42,800 nt of DNA from a virus (lineage: Duplodnaviria; Heunggongvirae; Uroviricota; Caudoviricetes). Under the pieces are notes generated by a model. That model did no database searches, was not told the DNA's origin, and saw nothing but the letters and a program-made list of their open reading frames with translations. Numbering within the stretch: the stretch's first letter is position 1; each line of letters starts with the position of its first letter. The position numbers and the translations under genes were made by a program. The DNA lies in IMG/VR virus record IMGVR_UViG_2703719347_000006, positions 1-42,800 of that record; one strand, 5' to 3'. Shown in pieces: positions 1-16,964 of this stretch.

Positions 1-1053
1 CTAGTAGTAATGGTCATAACCTCCGCTTTCTCTTCTGGCTCTGGATGCTCTCACTCGTGCTTTTCTTAACATCCTTAACAGCGGGTGGGTTTGTACTTTG
101 TTCGAGTTTATTGTCTGTGAGGATAGTAACTCCCTGCGCTCTGTCTCTGCCTCTTTGGTGACCGCTATCACTGATAAATCCCAATCGTGTTTGCTAATTA
201 ACGGTGCTTGGAACGGGGTGATTGGTGAGCGATTTATGTCTTGTCGTTTCAATGTACGCTGTATCTGTCGCTTAACTTTGTAGTTGTCTTTCCTTGATGC
301 CTGAATGGCTTTTAGTATGCGTCTTACAGCATGAAAGCCAGTGATAGAAAGTGTTTCTTTTTTTATCTCATGCCGCGCCCAGCCATTCGAATAACCCCAA
401 ACGTTGGCATCTGACCAATCATATAGGCTCTTGCTCGCCTCTCTATTAAAGTCATTTAACTTAGTTTCGGGTTTTGCCATGTAATCAATCTGTTTACCTA
501 TACACCTTGTAGGCTCTGAATATTGCTGACCTTTCAAATCTAGATCCCACTGGGGAGGAACATTTGATGGGATTGCATTGTTTGCCAGTGTTACCCATTT
601 GCTGACAATTTTGCCTGCTTGCCCATTAATGCTTCTTTCGTTCACCATAATTATTGCGTGTACATGCGGCTCTGACTGGTGTTGAGCCCACTCCATGACG
701 TAAACCCACTGATTGCCTTTCGAAGTCAACCATCTGGTAAGTGCCTTTAACGCTTTGTTGAATTTCTCTGGCGTTGTTCCCTTAACGGGTCTGAAGGTAA
801 AGGAGTAGGGGATACCACTAGTTGATTCGACATCCAGAGTAAACAAAGCTCGCCTCATTGTACGCCATTTCTTCTTTGTCCAAGCTGGTGGTATGCAGTG
901 GTTAGCCTTTGATGATTGGCGTTTATTCTCCGCCTTTAATTCATTACGTTTGTGCGTAACTGATCTCACATAAGCTAATGTGCGACCATTGATGTGATTG
1001 ATTACGGCTTGTGATTTTGTGGATAGACTCGCGTCTTTATCGTATAATTCCAT
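1..1053 (-). CDS. Rolling-circle replication initiator-like protein (HUH endonuclease motifs)
   Basis: 350-aa ORF; motifs in canonical order FTLDV (motif I), HVHAII (HUH, motif II), DYMAKP (Y-x-x-K, motif III) with about 60-aa spacing; last visible gene of the leftward integrase operon. Confidence 0.45.
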   Translation of the reverse strand: MELYDKDASLSTKSQAVINHINGRTLAYVRSVTHKRNELKAENKRQSSKANHCIPPAWTKKKWRTMRRALFTLDVESTSGIPYSFTFRPVKGTTPEKFNKALKALTRWLTSKGNQWVYVMEWAQHQSEPHVHAIIMVNERSINGQAGKIVSKWVTLANNAIPSNVPPQWDLDLKGQQYSEPTRCIGKQIDYMAKPETKLNDFNREASKSLYDWSDANVWGYSNGWARHEIKKETLSITGFHAVRRILKAIQASRKDNYKVKRQIQRTLKRQDINRSPITPFQAPLISKHDWDLSVIAVTKEAETERRELLSSQTINSNKVQTHPLLRMLRKARVRASRARRESGGYDHYY

Positions 1054-1121
1054 GTGTAAAGTTCATATATTTCAATTGCTTCAAAGCCGACTCTCGCAAA
1101 GTCGGCTTTCTGCTTTGTCAA

Positions 1122-1508
1122 TCACAGGTATTTGGTTTCAATACCCTTGTAAACAGTTCTAAGCGTGTCTTCAGGCACTTTACCCACCAGCCCACGCAAC
1201 AACGACAACGTTATGTTTACCTTACGCAATGTCTTTACATATCTGGCGTTCGTCCTCCAGATCTTCAATGTTTCGTCTTTATCGCTGTGGTATGCTTCTA
1301 AATTGCGTTCTGTGACGTGATACGCCTCTGTTTTAAACTGCTCAACAGGAATTCCCCAATCGTTGCGTAACAGCGTTAAAACGCGACTACGTTCGTGATT
1401 TCCGGCTTTCCTTAATATGTCGTCAAACTCTTTTGGGGTAAGCTTCCTGCCACTTAGTAGGATATCGCGTATATTCGCGGCGACCTGAGAGCGTGTAAGA
1501 GTGCTCAT
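1122..1508 (-). CDS. Hypothetical protein (128 aa)
   Basis: ORF with 4-nt ATGA-type overlap with the upstream 64-aa gene (1505-1508), suggesting coupling; no recognisable motif. Confidence 0.4.
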   Translation of the reverse strand: MSTLTRSQVAANIRDILLSGRKLTPKEFDDILRKAGNHERSRVLTLLRNDWGIPVEQFKTEAYHVTERNLEAYHSDKDETLKIWRTNARYVKTLRKVNITLSLLRGLVGKVPEDTLRTVYKGIETKYL

Positions 1509-1699
1509 TTTCGTCCCCCCAGAAATCTGTCGGCAAATTGATCAAGGCTGGAGGCAAGCCACACCCGGCGCTTGCGTCCATTGATGGTCTGATTTATATA
1601 GGGAGGAAAGCTTCGGATATATCGCTTTAACTGATAGAAGCGTGACAGACAGACGCCAAGATATTCTGCTGCGTCTTTAGCGGTCAGGTAATTAATCAT
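1505..1699 (-). CDS. Small HTH DNA-binding protein (excisionase/MerR-like helix-turn-helix)
   Basis: 64-aa ORF with motif LTAKDAAEYLGVCLSRFYQL typical of HTH_17/excisionase-type DNA-binding domains. Confidence 0.4.
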   Translation of the reverse strand: MINYLTAKDAAEYLGVCLSRFYQLKRYIRSFPPYINQTINGRKRRVWLASSLDQFADRFLGGRK

Positions 1700-1780
1700 T
1701 TTATTCCCTTACTGTTGTACCAAAATGTAATATGGAGGAGACTTCCTGTCTCCCCAAATTACTCTACAATTTTTGTGCGA

Positions 1781-1972
1781 TTAAATCAGATCTATTACTA
1801 AGTAATCATCGCCAGAGGCAATGCCGATAGCTTTTCCACCGCTGGTGGATTTCACATCATAAACCCAGGTGCTGGTGCTCACCTTTTGTGGCTCTGATCT
1901 AATCAGTGCCGCGAAGGTTTCAAAATCAACATGGGTTACGTTCAGCTTTTGATTGGTAGGTTTCAACTGCAT
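1781..1972 (-). CDS. Hypothetical protein (63 aa)
   Basis: Short ORF co-oriented with neighbours; no motif recognised. Confidence 0.3.
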   Translation of the reverse strand: MQLKPTNQKLNVTHVDFETFAALIRSEPQKVSTSTWVYDVKSTSGGKAIGIASGDDYLVIDLI

Positions 1973-2020: not shown

Positions 2021-2212
2021 TTAGTTACTACGCGATTCGGCTATACGTTGATCGATCCAGTCATCGATCTCGCTTTCAATAAAAGCTATTGCGCGAGCAC
2101 CAATCTTGACTGATTGGGGGAATTGTCCTCGGCTCATCAGAGCATATACCCACGCCTTGCTATAGCCAGTGCGTTTCAAAACCTCAGATAGCCGAATCAG
2201 CGACTTTTTCAT
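2021..2212 (-). CDS. AlpA-family transcriptional regulator (P4 Vis-like)
   Basis: 63-aa ORF; sequence LIRLSEVLKRTGYSKAWVYALMSRGQFPQSVKIGARAIAFIESEIDDWI matches the AlpA/Vis small HTH family pattern; downstream of a P4-type integrase. Confidence 0.6.
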   Translation of the reverse strand: MKKSLIRLSEVLKRTGYSKAWVYALMSRGQFPQSVKIGARAIAFIESEIDDWIDQRIAESRSN

Positions 2213-2368
2213 ATCTACCTCGTAATACGTTGCTTGACTATGTGAGATAGTAAATCATTGTTTTTTTAAGTTTTCTGTGAATTTGGAGAAAAAATTTTTG
2301 GGAATAGAATTACCCCAAATTGGGCGTTATTTTTTAGTTCTAACGCACAATTTGGGAACATCCTTCCT

Positions 2369-3115
2369 TTATTTTGGACGCTTTTTGGTTGCTTTTTTCT
2401 TAAATTTGGGGGCGTACTTATCCAAAGCGTTCGTTAGCAATCTCCGAAATGTATCTGGGTGGGTATCGCTGTCTTCATCGTTCCCGAATATTATGTTGTT
2501 TTCTATTACTTGGGCACTAACCCTATTGATACTAAGGTTTCCTCCACTATGGAAATCTTTGCTTGATTCAAATAAGGCAATCGCCATTCCGGCGATCATC
2601 TTTAAAGCCGTATCTTTTCCTCTCCAGTTTTGTTCTCTTTCTACTTTTTTTGACAGTGCTCCAATTTCTGGTTCGTTATCTGGAACATTCATATCCAGTT
2701 CTGGGAAGAAGTTCACAACCTCGGAGCGCTTGAAATAAAACGAATCGTAAGACCCATACCAATCATCCTCATCATCGTGATATAAAAAGTCTTCCCCTTT
2801 CCTAACGTTGAAAGTCCCTTCTTCCCCCGGTATCGGGCTCTCCCTGTATTCATGCCCCATAGCCAGAAGACCTAAAAACTCCACACACTGCTTTTCAAAG
2901 TCGTCATTAGTTGTAAAACCTGATACCCAATCGAACTGATAAAAGCCCAGCCCCCCTAAAGTATCTGGTTTAGCTTTGCTCAATCTGTAGTTACTTAAGA
3001 TAGCGGCAGCGATCATTCTTTCATTTTCATTGTTTAGTCTTGCCAGTTCGCTGATCAGATTACCAAACCAGATTTTATCTTCTGACTCGTTATAAAACGC
3101 ATCTAGTCCTGTCAT
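2369..3115 (-). CDS. Acidic hypothetical protein with basic C-terminal tail, translationally coupled to integrase
   Basis: ATG at 3115-3113 lies 1 nt after the integrase TAA stop (3119-3117); 248 aa from this ATG (ORF track gives a GTG start at 3124); D/E-rich core, C-terminal KFKKKATKKRPK; AT-rich by eye. Confidence 0.5.
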   Translation of the reverse strand: MTGLDAFYNESEDKIWFGNLISELARLNNENERMIAAAILSNYRLSKAKPDTLGGLGFYQFDWVSGFTTNDDFEKQCVEFLGLLAMGHEYRESPIPGEEGTFNVRKGEDFLYHDDEDDWYGSYDSFYFKRSEVVNFFPELDMNVPDNEPEIGALSKKVEREQNWRGKDTALKMIAGMAIALFESSKDFHSGGNLSINRVSAQVIENNIIFGNDEDSDTHPDTFRRLLTNALDKYAPKFKKKATKKRPK

Positions 3116-3116
3116 C

Positions 3117-4403
3117 TTAGTCACGGCGTGTTCTCCTTCCGAACTCGTAAGGGCTTATATGTATTTCTCGATTGGCGTCCAGATAATCTGCCCACCATTG
3201 AAGCATTAGTTTGCGCTCTTCTAAGTAATCAGCCTTGTGCTTGTAGGCTCTTTTAACGTCTTTATATTCTTTGTGGCTCATCTGGCGCTCTACTGCGTCC
3301 TCCTGCCACAAACCGGACTCCATCAGGGAACTACAGGCTGTGGCACGGAATCCATGTCCAGTTACGTCCTCTTGCGTGTTATAGCCCATTAAGCGTAATG
3401 CCTTGTTTACCGTGTTTTCACTCATCACGCCTTTGGTGTTTCTTTCATTCGGAAACACAACATCGTAGCTTCCGCTTAGTTCTCTCAACTGCTTTACAAT
3501 AGAAACAGCCTGACGGCTAAGAAGCACGATATGTTCGTCTTTTCCCGTTTTTGTGCCACGGGTGGAAAACCTCACACCATCGATAGGCTCTCTTTTTTTA
3601 GGGATAATCCACTCAGCCCGATCAAGGTCAAACTCTTTCCAACGGGCAAACCTTAACTCGCTTGAACGAACAAATGTCAACATGGTTAGCTCAATGGCAA
3701 GGCGGGTAAGAGGATTACCTTTAAAGCTGCCCAATCGAGTGAAAAAGTCTGGTAAATCTCTGGGATGTAGTGCGGCATGATGCTTAGTTTCATATTGCAT
3801 TAACCGGACATCGAGATCATTCGTGATGATTTCTGTCTTAATGCCGCTCAGACGGGCGCTATGTATGATGTCCTTAACTCGTTGTTTAAGTCGGTTGGCT
3901 GTATCGTGTTTCCCGGCGTCATCTACCTTCTTAAACAAAGGTAAAATTGTCATCGCCTCCAGTTTGCGAATATCCGAAGTGCCAATGTGAGGGAAAATAT
4001 ACATTTCAAGGCTTCTAAGTACGCGTTTTCGTTGGTCTTCGTTCCACATCTGGTGGCTTTCAACCCATTGACGTCCTATTGTCTCAAAAGTGAATGCGCC
4101 TTTTTCTTCTGCTTTTGCTGCTCTTTGCTCTGCTTTGGGATCTATCCCCTTGACTAACAACTTTTTGGCGTTGTCTCGTTTTTCTCTGGCGTCTTGTAAG
4201 CTAATGGTTGGATATACACCAAAAGCAAGTCTGTCTTCTTTCTTATCTGATGGGCGGCGATACTTCATTCGCCAATACTTCGACCCGGTCTGGGATACTT
4301 CAAGATAAAGACCACCACCATCAGACAATTTATAAGTTTTGTCTCGTGGCTTAGCTGCTTTGCACTGACGGTCTGTTAATTTGTTGAGGGTATTTCTGGA
4401 CAT
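3117..4403 (-). CDS. int: Tyrosine integrase, P4-type (arm-binding N-terminal domain)
   Basis: 428-aa ORF; N-terminus KLSDGGGLYLEVSQTGSKYWRMKYR typical of P4/CP4-57-type integrases; C-terminal catalytic region with HGFR...Y. Confidence 0.85.
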   Translation of the reverse strand: MSRNTLNKLTDRQCKAAKPRDKTYKLSDGGGLYLEVSQTGSKYWRMKYRRPSDKKEDRLAFGVYPTISLQDAREKRDNAKKLLVKGIDPKAEQRAAKAEEKGAFTFETIGRQWVESHQMWNEDQRKRVLRSLEMYIFPHIGTSDIRKLEAMTILPLFKKVDDAGKHDTANRLKQRVKDIIHSARLSGIKTEIITNDLDVRLMQYETKHHAALHPRDLPDFFTRLGSFKGNPLTRLAIELTMLTFVRSSELRFARWKEFDLDRAEWIIPKKREPIDGVRFSTRGTKTGKDEHIVLLSRQAVSIVKQLRELSGSYDVVFPNERNTKGVMSENTVNKALRLMGYNTQEDVTGHGFRATACSSLMESGLWQEDAVERQMSHKEYKDVKRAYKHKADYLEERKLMLQWWADYLDANREIHISPYEFGRRTRRD

Positions 4404-4655
4404 GTTGGGGGCACATATACAATCGAACCAGCAATGCCCCTAATTATGCCCCATAGATTTACTTGATTTCAATAGACGGAAATGGACGTCATGAGAATAA
4501 AATCTCTTTATTTTTATATGTTTACATGGGATTTATAGACAATGGTAGACGTTGGTGTACAGCGGGATGGTGTCCCCTGCAGACATCTACTTGAGGCAGC
4601 AGGGGATTGATTAGAATGGTGTTTTTGAGATGTGAGAAATATTTTACCCGCTATT

Positions 4656-4856
4656 TTACCCATTGGCGCGGCTTAAGAGCTTATTTTTGAATTCACAATG
4701 GTCACGATATAACCATCTTGCTCGTCCGTGGATAACTTTGGCTTTAGGCAGGTCGCCGGACTTAATCCGGTCATAGATGAAGGTCTTACCGAAGCCAGTA
4801 TCGGCCATGATGAATTTCAAATCAACTAGTGAATCAGGCTGTAGTTCGTGTTGCAT
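4656..4856 (-). CDS. xis: Excisionase-like small DNA-binding protein
   Basis: 66-aa ORF from internal ATG at 4856-4854 (Met75 of the track ORF 4656-5078); position between integrase and early recombination genes. Confidence 0.5.
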   Translation of the reverse strand: MQHELQPDSLVDLKFIMADTGFGKTFIYDRIKSGDLPKAKVIHGRARWLYRDHCEFKNKLLSRANG

Positions 4857-4935
4857 GAGTGCTATCTCCAAATAGGGAATCGAACCTGCAAATAAGGCAA
4901 TAAAAAACCGCATTGATGCGGCGATGGAAAATTCC

Positions 4936-8575: not shown

Positions 8576-9622
8576 TCACTCTGGTTCGCTGGGGAATATA
8601 TTTATCAATTGCCCTGTTGAAATGTGCCCATTTTCTACAACCTCTAGGTATGAAATTTCAACAGTTGATTCTTTGGCTACAGCATTCAAAAACTCAAGAA
8701 GCTCATCAGTAGATGTTATGTCGGCTGAGGTCTTTATGGTGAAAGATTCACCATTTGAAACCCTTATGACGTCAATATTTATGTCCTGATTTGTTTCTCC
8801 CGAGCGACGAACGCCCGTGACATAAAAGTTATCTCTTCTAGTTTCCTTTTTTCGATCAATTGATTGTCTTTGGTTTAAGGTATTCAACTGTTCTCTATTT
8901 ACCACTCTCTGACCAATTGTTACCCTCTCAACTGACGAGTCTTGAGCAAGCTTTTTAAGCAACTTGCTTTTACCATCCTCGCCGTGAGCCAGAACCTCTC
9001 TGCTAATGTTTGTTTGACCGCTAATCAACAACTTGAGCACATTGTCTTGTGCTTCGTTTACCGCTTTGGTGCTTTTTTCCACCAATTGCACCTGAGAATC
9101 TTGGTTATGTCGCTGTGTTTCGTAGTACTCATTGATCCACTTATAGCCTACCGTGCTGGCAGCTAAGACGATAGCGGCGACGGCGCATAGTGCTTGCCTT
9201 CCTGTCATTTTGCCTATCGCTTGAGTAAACACTGTCACCACTCCGTTTACAATCGGATCTGAGTCACCATCCGCTTGGCTTGAGCCTTCGCTTATTCGGT
9301 AGACAATATCCAGCAAACCTTTCTCTGCATCTTTTAGCTTCTGCCGATTATGAGTGCTGTGACTGACTACCGTAAATGCTTTTTGTATTTCATGCGTAAG
9401 CTCTGCCATACCAAAAAGCATTGACGCAGTCAATGAAGAATTATATCTATTTGGATCGCCTTTTACATTAATATTGATCTTTGGCCATCCACTGAAAACT
9501 ACGTTAGGGAATGTGAAGTCGCTTGAGTCGATGTCCTTCCTTCCGAGCATTTCTGTTACAAAAGATACAAAGTCGTCTTCTGACTTGATAACATATTGCG
9601 CAGGTTGATCAATCGCTGACAT
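8576..9622 (-). CDS. Membrane protein of unknown function in the rexAB position (candidate lysogen-expressed exclusion protein)
   Basis: 348-aa ORF; ATG 25 nt after the cI stop with AAGGA RBS; one predicted TM segment ALCAVAAIVLAASTVGYKWI followed by a coiled-coil-like stretch; AT-rich by eye; terminator immediately downstream. Confidence 0.7.
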   Translation of the reverse strand: MSAIDQPAQYVIKSEDDFVSFVTEMLGRKDIDSSDFTFPNVVFSGWPKININVKGDPNRYNSSLTASMLFGMAELTHEIQKAFTVVSHSTHNRQKLKDAEKGLLDIVYRISEGSSQADGDSDPIVNGVVTVFTQAIGKMTGRQALCAVAAIVLAASTVGYKWINEYYETQRHNQDSQVQLVEKSTKAVNEAQDNVLKLLISGQTNISREVLAHGEDGKSKLLKKLAQDSSVERVTIGQRVVNREQLNTLNQRQSIDRKKETRRDNFYVTGVRRSGETNQDINIDVIRVSNGESFTIKTSADITSTDELLEFLNAVAKESTVEISYLEVVENGHISTGQLINIFPSEPE

Positions 9623-16808: not shown

Positions 16809-16883
16809 GGGTCAGTCGTATAAAGGTCATTACGGAAGGCTGTTAACCTTCTTATCGTGGTTCGAGTCCACGCTGTCCCGCCA
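16809..16883 (+). tRNA. tRNA-Asn (anticodon GUU), by manual cloverleaf folding
   Basis: 75 nt: acceptor gggtcag/ctgtccc (one mismatch), anticodon stem gaagg/ccttc, loop ctGTTaa, T-arm cgtgg-TTCGAGT-ccacg, discriminator g and CCA. Confidence 0.6.
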
Positions 16884-16888
16884 AATAT

Positions 16889-16964
16889 GCTGGTTTAGCT
16901 CCAATGGTAGAGCAGTCGCCTTGTAAGCGAATGGGTAGCGGTTCAAGTCCGTTAACCAGCACCA
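16889..16964 (+). tRNA. tRNA-Thr (anticodon UGU), by manual cloverleaf folding
   Basis: 76 nt: acceptor gctggtt/aaccagc, D-arm gctc/gagc with GG in loop, anticodon loop ctTGTaa, T-arm agcgg-TTCAAGT-ccgtt, discriminator a and CCA. Confidence 0.7.

Follow-up and report, generated by a model that had tools for sequence, protein, structure and literature searches.

Expression of AlpA is both necessary and sufficient for induction in the Gram-negative PICIs and in the PICMIs (PMC6092414, PMC10803314, PMC11773190). AlpA, the master activator or excisionase-type protein of PICI-like islands, also activates the promoter from which it is itself expressed, and a helper-phage infection switches alpA on by way of a factor yet to be named (PMC6092414). 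Published work openly acknowledges that it lacks an explanation of how Gram-negative satellites are kept silent and of how a helper activates alpA (Fillol-Salom et al.; Barcia-Cruz et al.). The closest described counterparts of the gene considered here are the integrase-overlapping or integrase-contiguous genes (iolg/icg) of the Vibrio PICMIs, which likewise lie between int and alpA in small satellite-like islands, overlap int by 1, 4 or 13 nt, are expressed constitutively with int, and fall into 13 families that are unrelated to one another and have no assigned function (Barcia-Cruz et al. 2024, PMC10803314). The iolg genes are needed for helper-induced activation; in PICMI115, neither excision nor transfer is induced by the helper once iolg is deleted, and a copy in trans complements the defect (PMC10803314). 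The authors propose that the product acts in an Int/IOLG/AlpA excision complex (PMC10803314); an operator array or DNA binding has not been reported for it. In the SaPIs and Gram-positive PICIs, induction is gated by the master repressors Stl/Rpr, island-encoded proteins located next to int. These are modular, a DNA-binding part being joined to a variable one, which in the case of Stl is the sensor of a helper-phage protein; Stl carries an N-terminal Xre-type HTH and is divergent to str/xis.

The locus described here lies in the window, meaning the whole 42.8-kb stretch of DNA that was analysed. Its left 4.6 kb hold the int-proximal part of an ~11-kb PICI-like island that is inserted in the tRNA-Arg gene argW in tandem with a prophage. 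The island reads int, X (the gene under study), alpA, small genes, rolling-circle Rep, variable cargo and resolvase, with the cargo slot and the resolvase lying beyond the window, and all of the island features given below are on the minus strand. A copy of the argW 3′ end, the att core (4568..4582), marks where the island ends on the left and meets the torI end of the prophage; the latter occupies the same site and is lambdoid/P22-like (torI excisionase, Abc2, SSB, Erf). In loci L004, L012 and L014 the island directly adjoins argW, and homology to the window begins within the final 15 nt of the tRNA. A candidate promoter for an int–X operon is found at 4443..4472 (TTGAAA, 18 nt, CATAAT; 10/12), followed by int itself (3117..4403), a P4-type tyrosine integrase with Arm-DNA-bind_3, Phage_int_M and Phage_integrase domains. 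X occupies 2369..3124, and alpA (2021..2212), which encodes a 63-aa protein of the Phage_AlpA family, lies 156 nt downstream of it. The rest of the island backbone (1..1972) consists of a 63-aa ORF, a 64-aa HTH_17 protein, a 128-aa ORF and a 350-aa rolling-circle Rep (REP_ORF2-G2P, phrog_30534). An Rfam scan of the island returned no RNA family.

X lies between int and alpA on the same strand as both and overlaps or abuts int, and by position and overlap only it is an "integrase-overlapping gene" in the PICMI sense, although the X island carries a rolling-circle Rep where the PICMIs carry a primase. The initial annotation described a 248-aa ORF (2369..3115) whose ATG lies 1 nt past the int stop (TAA 3119-3117, ATG 3115-3113, TAAgATG), and this frame is present. 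The true start is most likely the GTG at 3124, which gives 251 aa (MTKMTG...) and an 8-nt overlap with int (GTGACTAA), because a Shine-Dalgarno AAGGAG (3138-3133) lies 8 nt ahead of this GTG and 17 nt ahead of the ATG, because the GTG is the start used in RefSeq (WP_001535476.1, annotated "hypothetical protein") and in all gene calls, and because the L015 homologue reads ATG at the GTG position and encodes Val in place of the ATG of the window. Co-transcription and translational coupling with int, which had been proposed from the spacing of the two genes, are supported by the sequence and would be tighter than was claimed, given the 8-nt overlap and the probable GTG start. The protein is D/E-rich, as had been noted (43 D/E vs 31 K/R, pI 4.9); its N-terminal domain has a pI of 4.3, and the lysine-rich C-terminal tail that had also been pointed out, KFKKKATKKRPK, a pI of 11.5. 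The AT-richness ascribed to the region is clear only in the intergenic region (IGR) after X, at 32% GC, and is slight for the ORF itself, at 41% compared with 45% in int, 43% in the island and 50% in the window. Because dN/dS is 0.07-0.22 across the N-terminal domain against near relatives, indicating purifying selection, and because intact homologues are known down to 27% identity, the ORF is evidently a real gene.

The lack of a recognisable motif recorded in the initial annotation is borne out by Pfam, PHROGs, NCBIfam and PADLOC, none of which matches X, and no defence model in PADLOC-DB was matched at E<=1. Over 48 members of the X family Pfam gave scattered single weak matches only, and an Xre/cI-type HTH (HTH_3, HTH_31 or similar Pfam) is absent from X and all 48. 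A Phage_AlpA or HTH_17 domain was not found in X by Pfam, the AlpA of the island being the neighbour at 2021-2212. Nor does X match DUF6387 (PF19924) at gathering score, whereas the slot proteins of L025 and L027 do so at 4e-38 and 1e-80. With no Pfam or PADLOC match, identification of X as DUF6387, AlpA or a known defence protein was rejected.

An X-type gene sits between a P4-type int and alpA in every locus examined (L003, L004-L010, L012-L024 and L029-L033), the sources being Escherichia, Buttiauxella, Leclercia, Mangrovibacter, Lelliottia, Pseudocitrobacter, Rahnella, Pectobacterium and metagenomes. Distant homologues keep to this int–X–alpA arrangement in islands whose replication modules are altogether different, including ones with DUF927 primases instead of the rolling-circle Rep. 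Among 5426 complete E. coli genomes, X is found in 226 and this alpA (>=95% identity) in 225. By these comparisons X is evidently a core island gene, fixed in position. In other enterobacterial PICIs the same slot is taken by DUF6387 and "type-2 CTD" proteins of 240-290 aa, which have IGR repeats of their own (L025-L028). These proteins and X show no detectable homology, with an hhalign probability below 1% (0.1% for the X family against the DUF6387 slot protein of L027). In CP4-57 of K-12, YfjH lies between intA and alpA on the opposite strand.

X is composed of two modules. The N-terminal domain (NTD; ~aa 1-146, 2687..3124) is an acidic alpha/beta domain that has conserved residues of its own, is 96% identical at the nucleotide level among the argW islands and is inherited with int. 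A winged-helix-like pattern is seen in its first ~60 residues; the X-family profile compared with PDB RpoE-delta chains (HARE-HTH-like; N-terminal part) gave E values of 0.27-0.4, which are non-significant, as were the other PDB sequence-profile matches (Fis, E 0.58, and DotY). The linker, the C-terminal domain (CTD) and the lysine-rich tail occupy 2372..2686. The CTD comprises ~85 aa in three helices, with the motif GKDTALKMIAGMAIAL (family form GKDTALxMIAGLAIAL...NKS), and appears weakly winged-helix-like. It is a mobile domain, common to ~68 protein clusters; a word-indexed search for the family yielded 13 clusters and an exhaustive HMM search 68 representatives. A search for related loci with the CTD alignment gave 9 loci, with all X homologues found coming from Enterobacterales, and a protein search with the same alignment returned short CTD-only ORFs alone. 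A Fis/NinH-type HTH was considered and set aside, the weak NinH matches of P0023, a protein with 8 CTD-like repeats, being sums over those repeats. The CTD is the more widespread module and is joined to several unrelated N-terminal regions. Since P0024 pairs an X-like NTD with a different CTD, of type 2, both modules of X are shuffled.

The CTD coding region and ~100 bp of the downstream IGR form a swappable cassette (2267..2690). This segment cannot be aligned between the window and L012 or L014, while the flanks are 95-99% identical at the nucleotide level; AlpA is 100% identical in all three islands, as is Int in the window and L014. One edge of the cassette lies in the interdomain linker of X and the other ~100 bp beyond its stop, just past a -35-like hexamer, leaving the -10 region and alpA intact outside. 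Synonymous divergence is 2.8-4.3 in the CTD vs 0.12-0.17 in the NTD, and because of this disparity the CTD difference indicates old alleles that were exchanged by recombination, not drift. Rapid positive selection on the CTD is ruled out by the same saturated dS (2.8-4.3), with dN/dS ~0.2.

The IGR stretch of the cassette contains 4-6 direct repeats, ~22 bp apart, that run up to the alpA -35. In the window this array (2276..2410) has the core YCCAAW, with first bases at 2410, 2378, 2356, 2324, 2302 and 2287, all on the coding strand and with a main spacing of 22/32/22/22 bp. The repeat at 2410 lies within the codons of the lysine-rich tail, that at 2378 overlaps the X stop codon, and the array ends in the -35-like TTCACA (2281-2276). 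The layout in L003 is 21/31/23/21 bp, again on one strand. Five sites fall within 110 bp in the window array, compared with a maximum of 2 elsewhere in the 42.8 kb on either strand, so that the array region alone in the window has at least 3 such sites per 110 bp. Shuffled versions of the window IGR match the repeat count in 75/200 cases, which makes the repeats unremarkable by themselves; the support therefore rests on the whole-window cluster statistic together with the comparative data. Between the window and L004, whose CTDs are 58% identical at the nucleotide level, the repeats are kept and the spacers have diverged, which is a phylogenetic footprint. The putative alpA promoter (2254..2281) consists of TTCACA, a 16-nt spacer and AATGAT, matching 9/12 consensus positions; its -10 region, AAACAATGATTTA, lies just outside the cassette, and even L029, an island of 43% identity, conserves it. 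At the -35 position the repeat nearest the promoter takes the form of a CCAC/TCACA variant in every case. Nearly all sites are upstream of or at the alpA -35, and none lies over the -10 or +1. No convincing intrinsic terminator was found between X and alpA in the window.

The comparison of related loci reveals that each CTD type comes with a repeat type of its own. Of the 14 loci with a main-type CTD, 13 carry CTTCCA in 2-6 forward copies, the exception being L023, with two TTACCAA-type sites and no CTTCCA; in the form ACTTCCA(A/C), the main-type islands hold 4-8 copies in the same layout as the window. When twelve main-type loci (L031 and L032 left out) were shuffled 200 times each, the observed ACTTCCA(A/C) count was reached in 0-9/200 shuffles in 9/12 loci, in 34-36/200 in L019 and L021, and in 198/200 in L023. 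The window-type CTD (window, L004, L024 and L029) is accompanied by YCCCAA(A/T) repeats, and the P0004/P0007-type CTD (L012 and L014) by 4-5 copies of TTACYA. CTTCCA is absent from the window-type loci, from the P0004/P0007-type loci and from six control IGRs, taken from loci with other or no slot proteins. The association of CTD and repeat covers 19 loci from at least 10 genera, set against 6 controls. Other slot proteins bring their own repeats, such as the four copies of the palindrome ACCCTGAGGGT in L026.

Neither AlpA nor Int accounts for this pattern. L028 shares 97% AlpA identity with L007 and L016 but differs from them in its slot protein and lacks CTTCCA, and the AlpA of L022 is only 34-44% identical while the locus still has a main-type CTD and CTTCCA repeats. 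AlpA was therefore rejected as the determinant of repeat specificity: identical AlpA proteins occur with different repeats, and dissimilar ones with the same repeats. Int was rejected likewise, since the window and L014 integrases are 100% identical with differing repeats, and integrases only 35-37% identical go alike with CCAA-type arrays. Moreover, L025, L026 and L028, whose integrases are 93-97% identical, have three slot proteins and three IGRs. On the comparative evidence, then, the repeat sequence evidently tracks CTD type, not AlpA or Int. An incomplete search of the literature found no paper that gives the function of an int–alpA slot gene or describes these repeats.

These observations suggest that X is probably a DNA-binding regulator acting at the repeats upstream of alpA, and that it most probably governs when the island wakes. 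For the family as a whole, the best explanation is a new group of cassette-type regulators acting on the alpA switch of the satellite. For X itself, the fuller description, as a regulator built of two modules that acts sequence-specifically at the alpA promoter of its island, is a plausible reading that we put forward with some reserve. Under this description X would be produced together with Int from the overlapping genes, and the CTD, as a small winged-helix-like bundle, would bind the 4-6 direct repeats, which with their ~22-bp spacing would therefore lie on one face of the DNA. The last repeat coincides with the alpA -35; X bound at the array would control alpA, and the NTD, a separately shuffled module, would take in a signal, presumably a helper-phage product. 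Several facts tell against it. The CTD and the repeats are adjacent, and one recombination event would move both whether or not they interact; X is acidic overall and has no sequence match to known DNA-binding families. Furthermore, EcCICFT073 and EcCIMP1 have no slot gene, and their int–alpA gaps (365 and 427 bp) lack both an X homologue and a CCAA array. Because alpA is still helper-induced in these two islands, X is not generally required.

Other readings of the locus were weighed against that of an alpA regulator. The initial annotation took X to be accessory cargo next to the integrase, serving defence or anti-defence, an interpretation that we regard as very improbable. Integrase-adjacent hotspots are known in P4-like satellites, according to a published study (PMC9122126), and an acidic protein without annotation, whose C-terminal half differs among strains and whose slot in PICI-like islands also houses unrelated proteins such as DUF6387 and type-2 proteins, would not be out of place in one. 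However, X is in essentially every island copy, so that the near-equal genome counts for X and alpA do not show the presence/absence variation expected of hotspot cargo; X is also under purifying selection, is matched by no PADLOC model, and varies only by way of the CTD-plus-operator cassette. The truly variable slot is a separate one, between Rep and the resolvase, and its contents differ by strain: 821 + 330 aa, 152 + 232 aa, an AAA_15/21 ATPase with DUF4435, or a 470-aa protein. The ATPase–DUF4435 pair is the version in L012, and unrelated genes are present in L001, L004 and L014; by domain composition we take the pair to resemble PARIS. Against its own proposal the initial annotation had set a core gene with a housekeeping role, of which the core status and fixed position are what we find, and a known role is not. 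A gene of unknown function next to an integrase is thus not automatically defence cargo; here the cargo slot is elsewhere. It is also improbable, in our estimation, that some factor other than X occupies the repeats, be it a host factor, AlpA or an activator from the helper phage, with the CTD as a co-travelling protein-interaction domain. Linkage alone could explain the co-variation of the adjacent CTD and repeats, repeat arrays precede alpA in EcCICFT073, an island that has no slot protein, and AlpA and a helper-dependent factor are both already known to act on alpA expression (PMC6092414). The identity comparisons, however, remove AlpA (97-100% identical with different repeats, 34-44% identical with the same) and Int as the binder, the association holds across many genera relative to the controls, and the cassette runs from a domain boundary to the -35. 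Equally, X might serve as an integrase cofactor in an excision/integration complex with Int and AlpA and not be a transcription factor, which we judge quite unlikely. The int overlap would give coupled expression, the NTD is inherited with int, and the PICMI iolg is needed for excision, its authors proposing a complex of this kind (PMC10803314). Coupling to int is not conserved, though, as distant X homologues begin 144 nt after int, and the same NTD or CTD is found with integrases only 35-37% identical. A pure excision-complex role is also less attractive because some 2.2 kb separate the repeat array from the att core (4568-4582), and in every case the array adjoins alpA, not att.

If X is a regulator of alpA, the sign of its action has to be considered as well. 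A tentative lean, short of an even chance, is toward X as a phage-responsive activator (or adaptor) rather than a repressor of the alpA promoter. Sites upstream of or at the -35, with none over the -10 or +1, are typical of activators, and the lean rests on this placement, on the islands without a slot gene, which hold alpA silent unaided, and on iolg, the positional analogue in PICMI115, which is needed for induction and can be complemented in trans. The opposite possibility is that X is a maintenance repressor like Stl/Rpr, made constitutively with Int, that occludes the -35 of the alpA promoter and is relieved by a helper protein acting at the NTD; X coating the repeats could also block read-through from int–X. 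We consider this unlikely, even though all of the evidence on co-variation of CTD and repeats applies to it equally. The promoter-proximal repeat lies on a reasonable -35 (TTCACA, 16-nt spacer), int, X and alpA are co-directional, the X–alpA interval of the window shows no clear terminator, and the variable sensor modules are like those of Stl repressors; as AlpA auto-activates (PMC6092414), a brake would therefore be useful. The 9/12 match of the window alpA promoter to sigma-70, a fair one, fits repression as well as activation. Against repression, no site covers the -10 and +1, islands lacking a slot gene keep alpA silent without such a repressor, deletion of iolg in the PICMI abolishes induction instead of causing it, and X has no Xre-type HTH and no divergent promoters like those of stl/str. 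A Stl/Rpr repressor proper was for this reason rejected as a description of X: the HTH is missing, and int, X and alpA are on the same strand, not divergent.

Set beside the known systems, X can still be likened to Stl/Rpr as an island-encoded modular protein next to int that may gate induction, although its putative DNA-binding module is C-terminal, it is co-directional with alpA, and the sign of regulation may be the opposite one. The X cassette resembles the lambdoid immunity cassettes in that a binding part and its putative cognate sites are replaced together, giving distinct specificity types. Here, however, a single domain is swapped, with the breakpoint in the interdomain linker, and the sites are direct repeats ~22 bp apart, whereas lambdoid immunity operators are palindromic. 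A putative likeness may also be drawn to the OmpR/PhoB-type activators, in which a winged-helix domain works with head-to-tail repeats that are upstream of, replace or overlap the -35; X has no sequence similarity to these proteins and no receiver domain, and its spacing is ~22 bp rather than 10-11 bp.

This work offers a concrete candidate for the missing link between helper and alpA, consisting of an unannotated family, putative operators at base-pair resolution, and the natural specificity variants TTCCCAAA, TTACCAAAC and ACTTCCAA; because all three are at hand, the question of a regulator is directly testable. It is conceivable, if still rather speculative, that X-family proteins are adaptors which tie helper-phage infection to alpA in some Gram-negative PICI-like satellites, with the NTD as a sensor, the CTD on the repeats, and the cassettes traded between islands. 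Should this prove true, exchange of the CTD together with its operators, much like that of an immunity region, would give rise to orthogonal switch types, and the essential integrase-overlapping genes of the PICMIs would be transcriptional gatekeepers and not subunits of an excision complex.

PICIs typically carry a primase, whereas the island in argW replicates by means of a rolling-circle Rep of 350 aa in its place (window 1-1053; PF23343 REP_ORF2-G2P at 7.6e-7 and phrog_30534 at 3e-151), and the int-X-alpA front end, X being the gene between int and alpA, is retained despite this Rep. The Rep flanks one side of a cargo slot, with a resolvase gene on the other, whose content varies among strains and which lies outside the window, past its position 1. 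The slot encodes hypothetical proteins of 821 and 330 aa in the window's own lineage (L001, 7748-11202), and in the other argW islands it holds proteins of 152 and 232 aa (L004, 12052-13221), one protein of 470 aa (L014, 11791-13203), or an AAA_15/21 ATPase with a DUF4435 protein (L012, 12130-13988), a pair that is PARIS-like in its domain composition.

Integration in argW has placed the island in tandem with a lambdoid/P22-like prophage (window 4568-4860). A retained 15-nt segment of the argW 3' end marks the left end of the island, about 75 bp from the end of torI, the excisionase gene of the prophage (window 4656-4856). This prophage could be the helper of the island. Its early-left region includes a minus-strand ORF of 348 aa (window 8576-9622), possibly an accessory or exclusion gene; the same position in the related prophages of L001 and L002 is occupied by an 'SDH family Clp fold serine proteinase'. 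Downstream of the Q antiterminator region, the prophage contains a tRNA-Asn(GTT)/tRNA-Thr(TGT) pair (window 16809-16964), as does the related prophage of L002.

The codons of the lysine-rich X tail (window 2372-2413), CCC AAA TTT AAG AAA AAA GCA ACC AAA AAG CGT CCA AAA TAA, contain CCAAA repeat cores within the reading frame, and GCxCCCAAATTT, which codes for APKF, is kept in L004 and in the comparison locus L029. The basic tail may be partly a by-product of operator-like sequence extending into the gene. The alpA leader of main-family islands has a 9-bp inverted repeat, ACCTCGTAA and TTACGAGGT separated by 13 nt (L003 2540-2572; L007 7975-8006; L028 ~3430-3464); no clear counterpart is seen in the window's alpA leader. 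Because its 3' arm includes the alpA Shine-Dalgarno sequence, the repeat may form a hairpin that blocks translation.

Repeats also occur in EcCICFT073 (L035), a characterised PICI without a slot gene. Its int-alpA gap of 365 bp has six GAACAACG-like repeats with a 10-bp period directly after int, and GACACAA and ACCCAA repeats immediately upstream of alpA (L035 9185-9245 and 9440-9500).

Slot proteins other than X include those with a 'type-2' C-terminal domain, also present in P0024, and DUF6387 proteins (L025, L026, L028). A further protein, P0023 (879 aa, metagenomic), consists of eight CTD-like units in tandem, and its matches to Pfam Phage_NinH are weak and summed. The intergenic regions of the three islands bear repeats of their own: four copies of ACCCTGAGGGT in L026 (3264-3458), CCACCATT inverted repeats with TACCCA copies in L028 (3249-3464), and TCCGCT copies in L025 (3288-3485). 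Since these proteins bring their own repeats, the pairing of a C-terminal domain with putative operators may be general.
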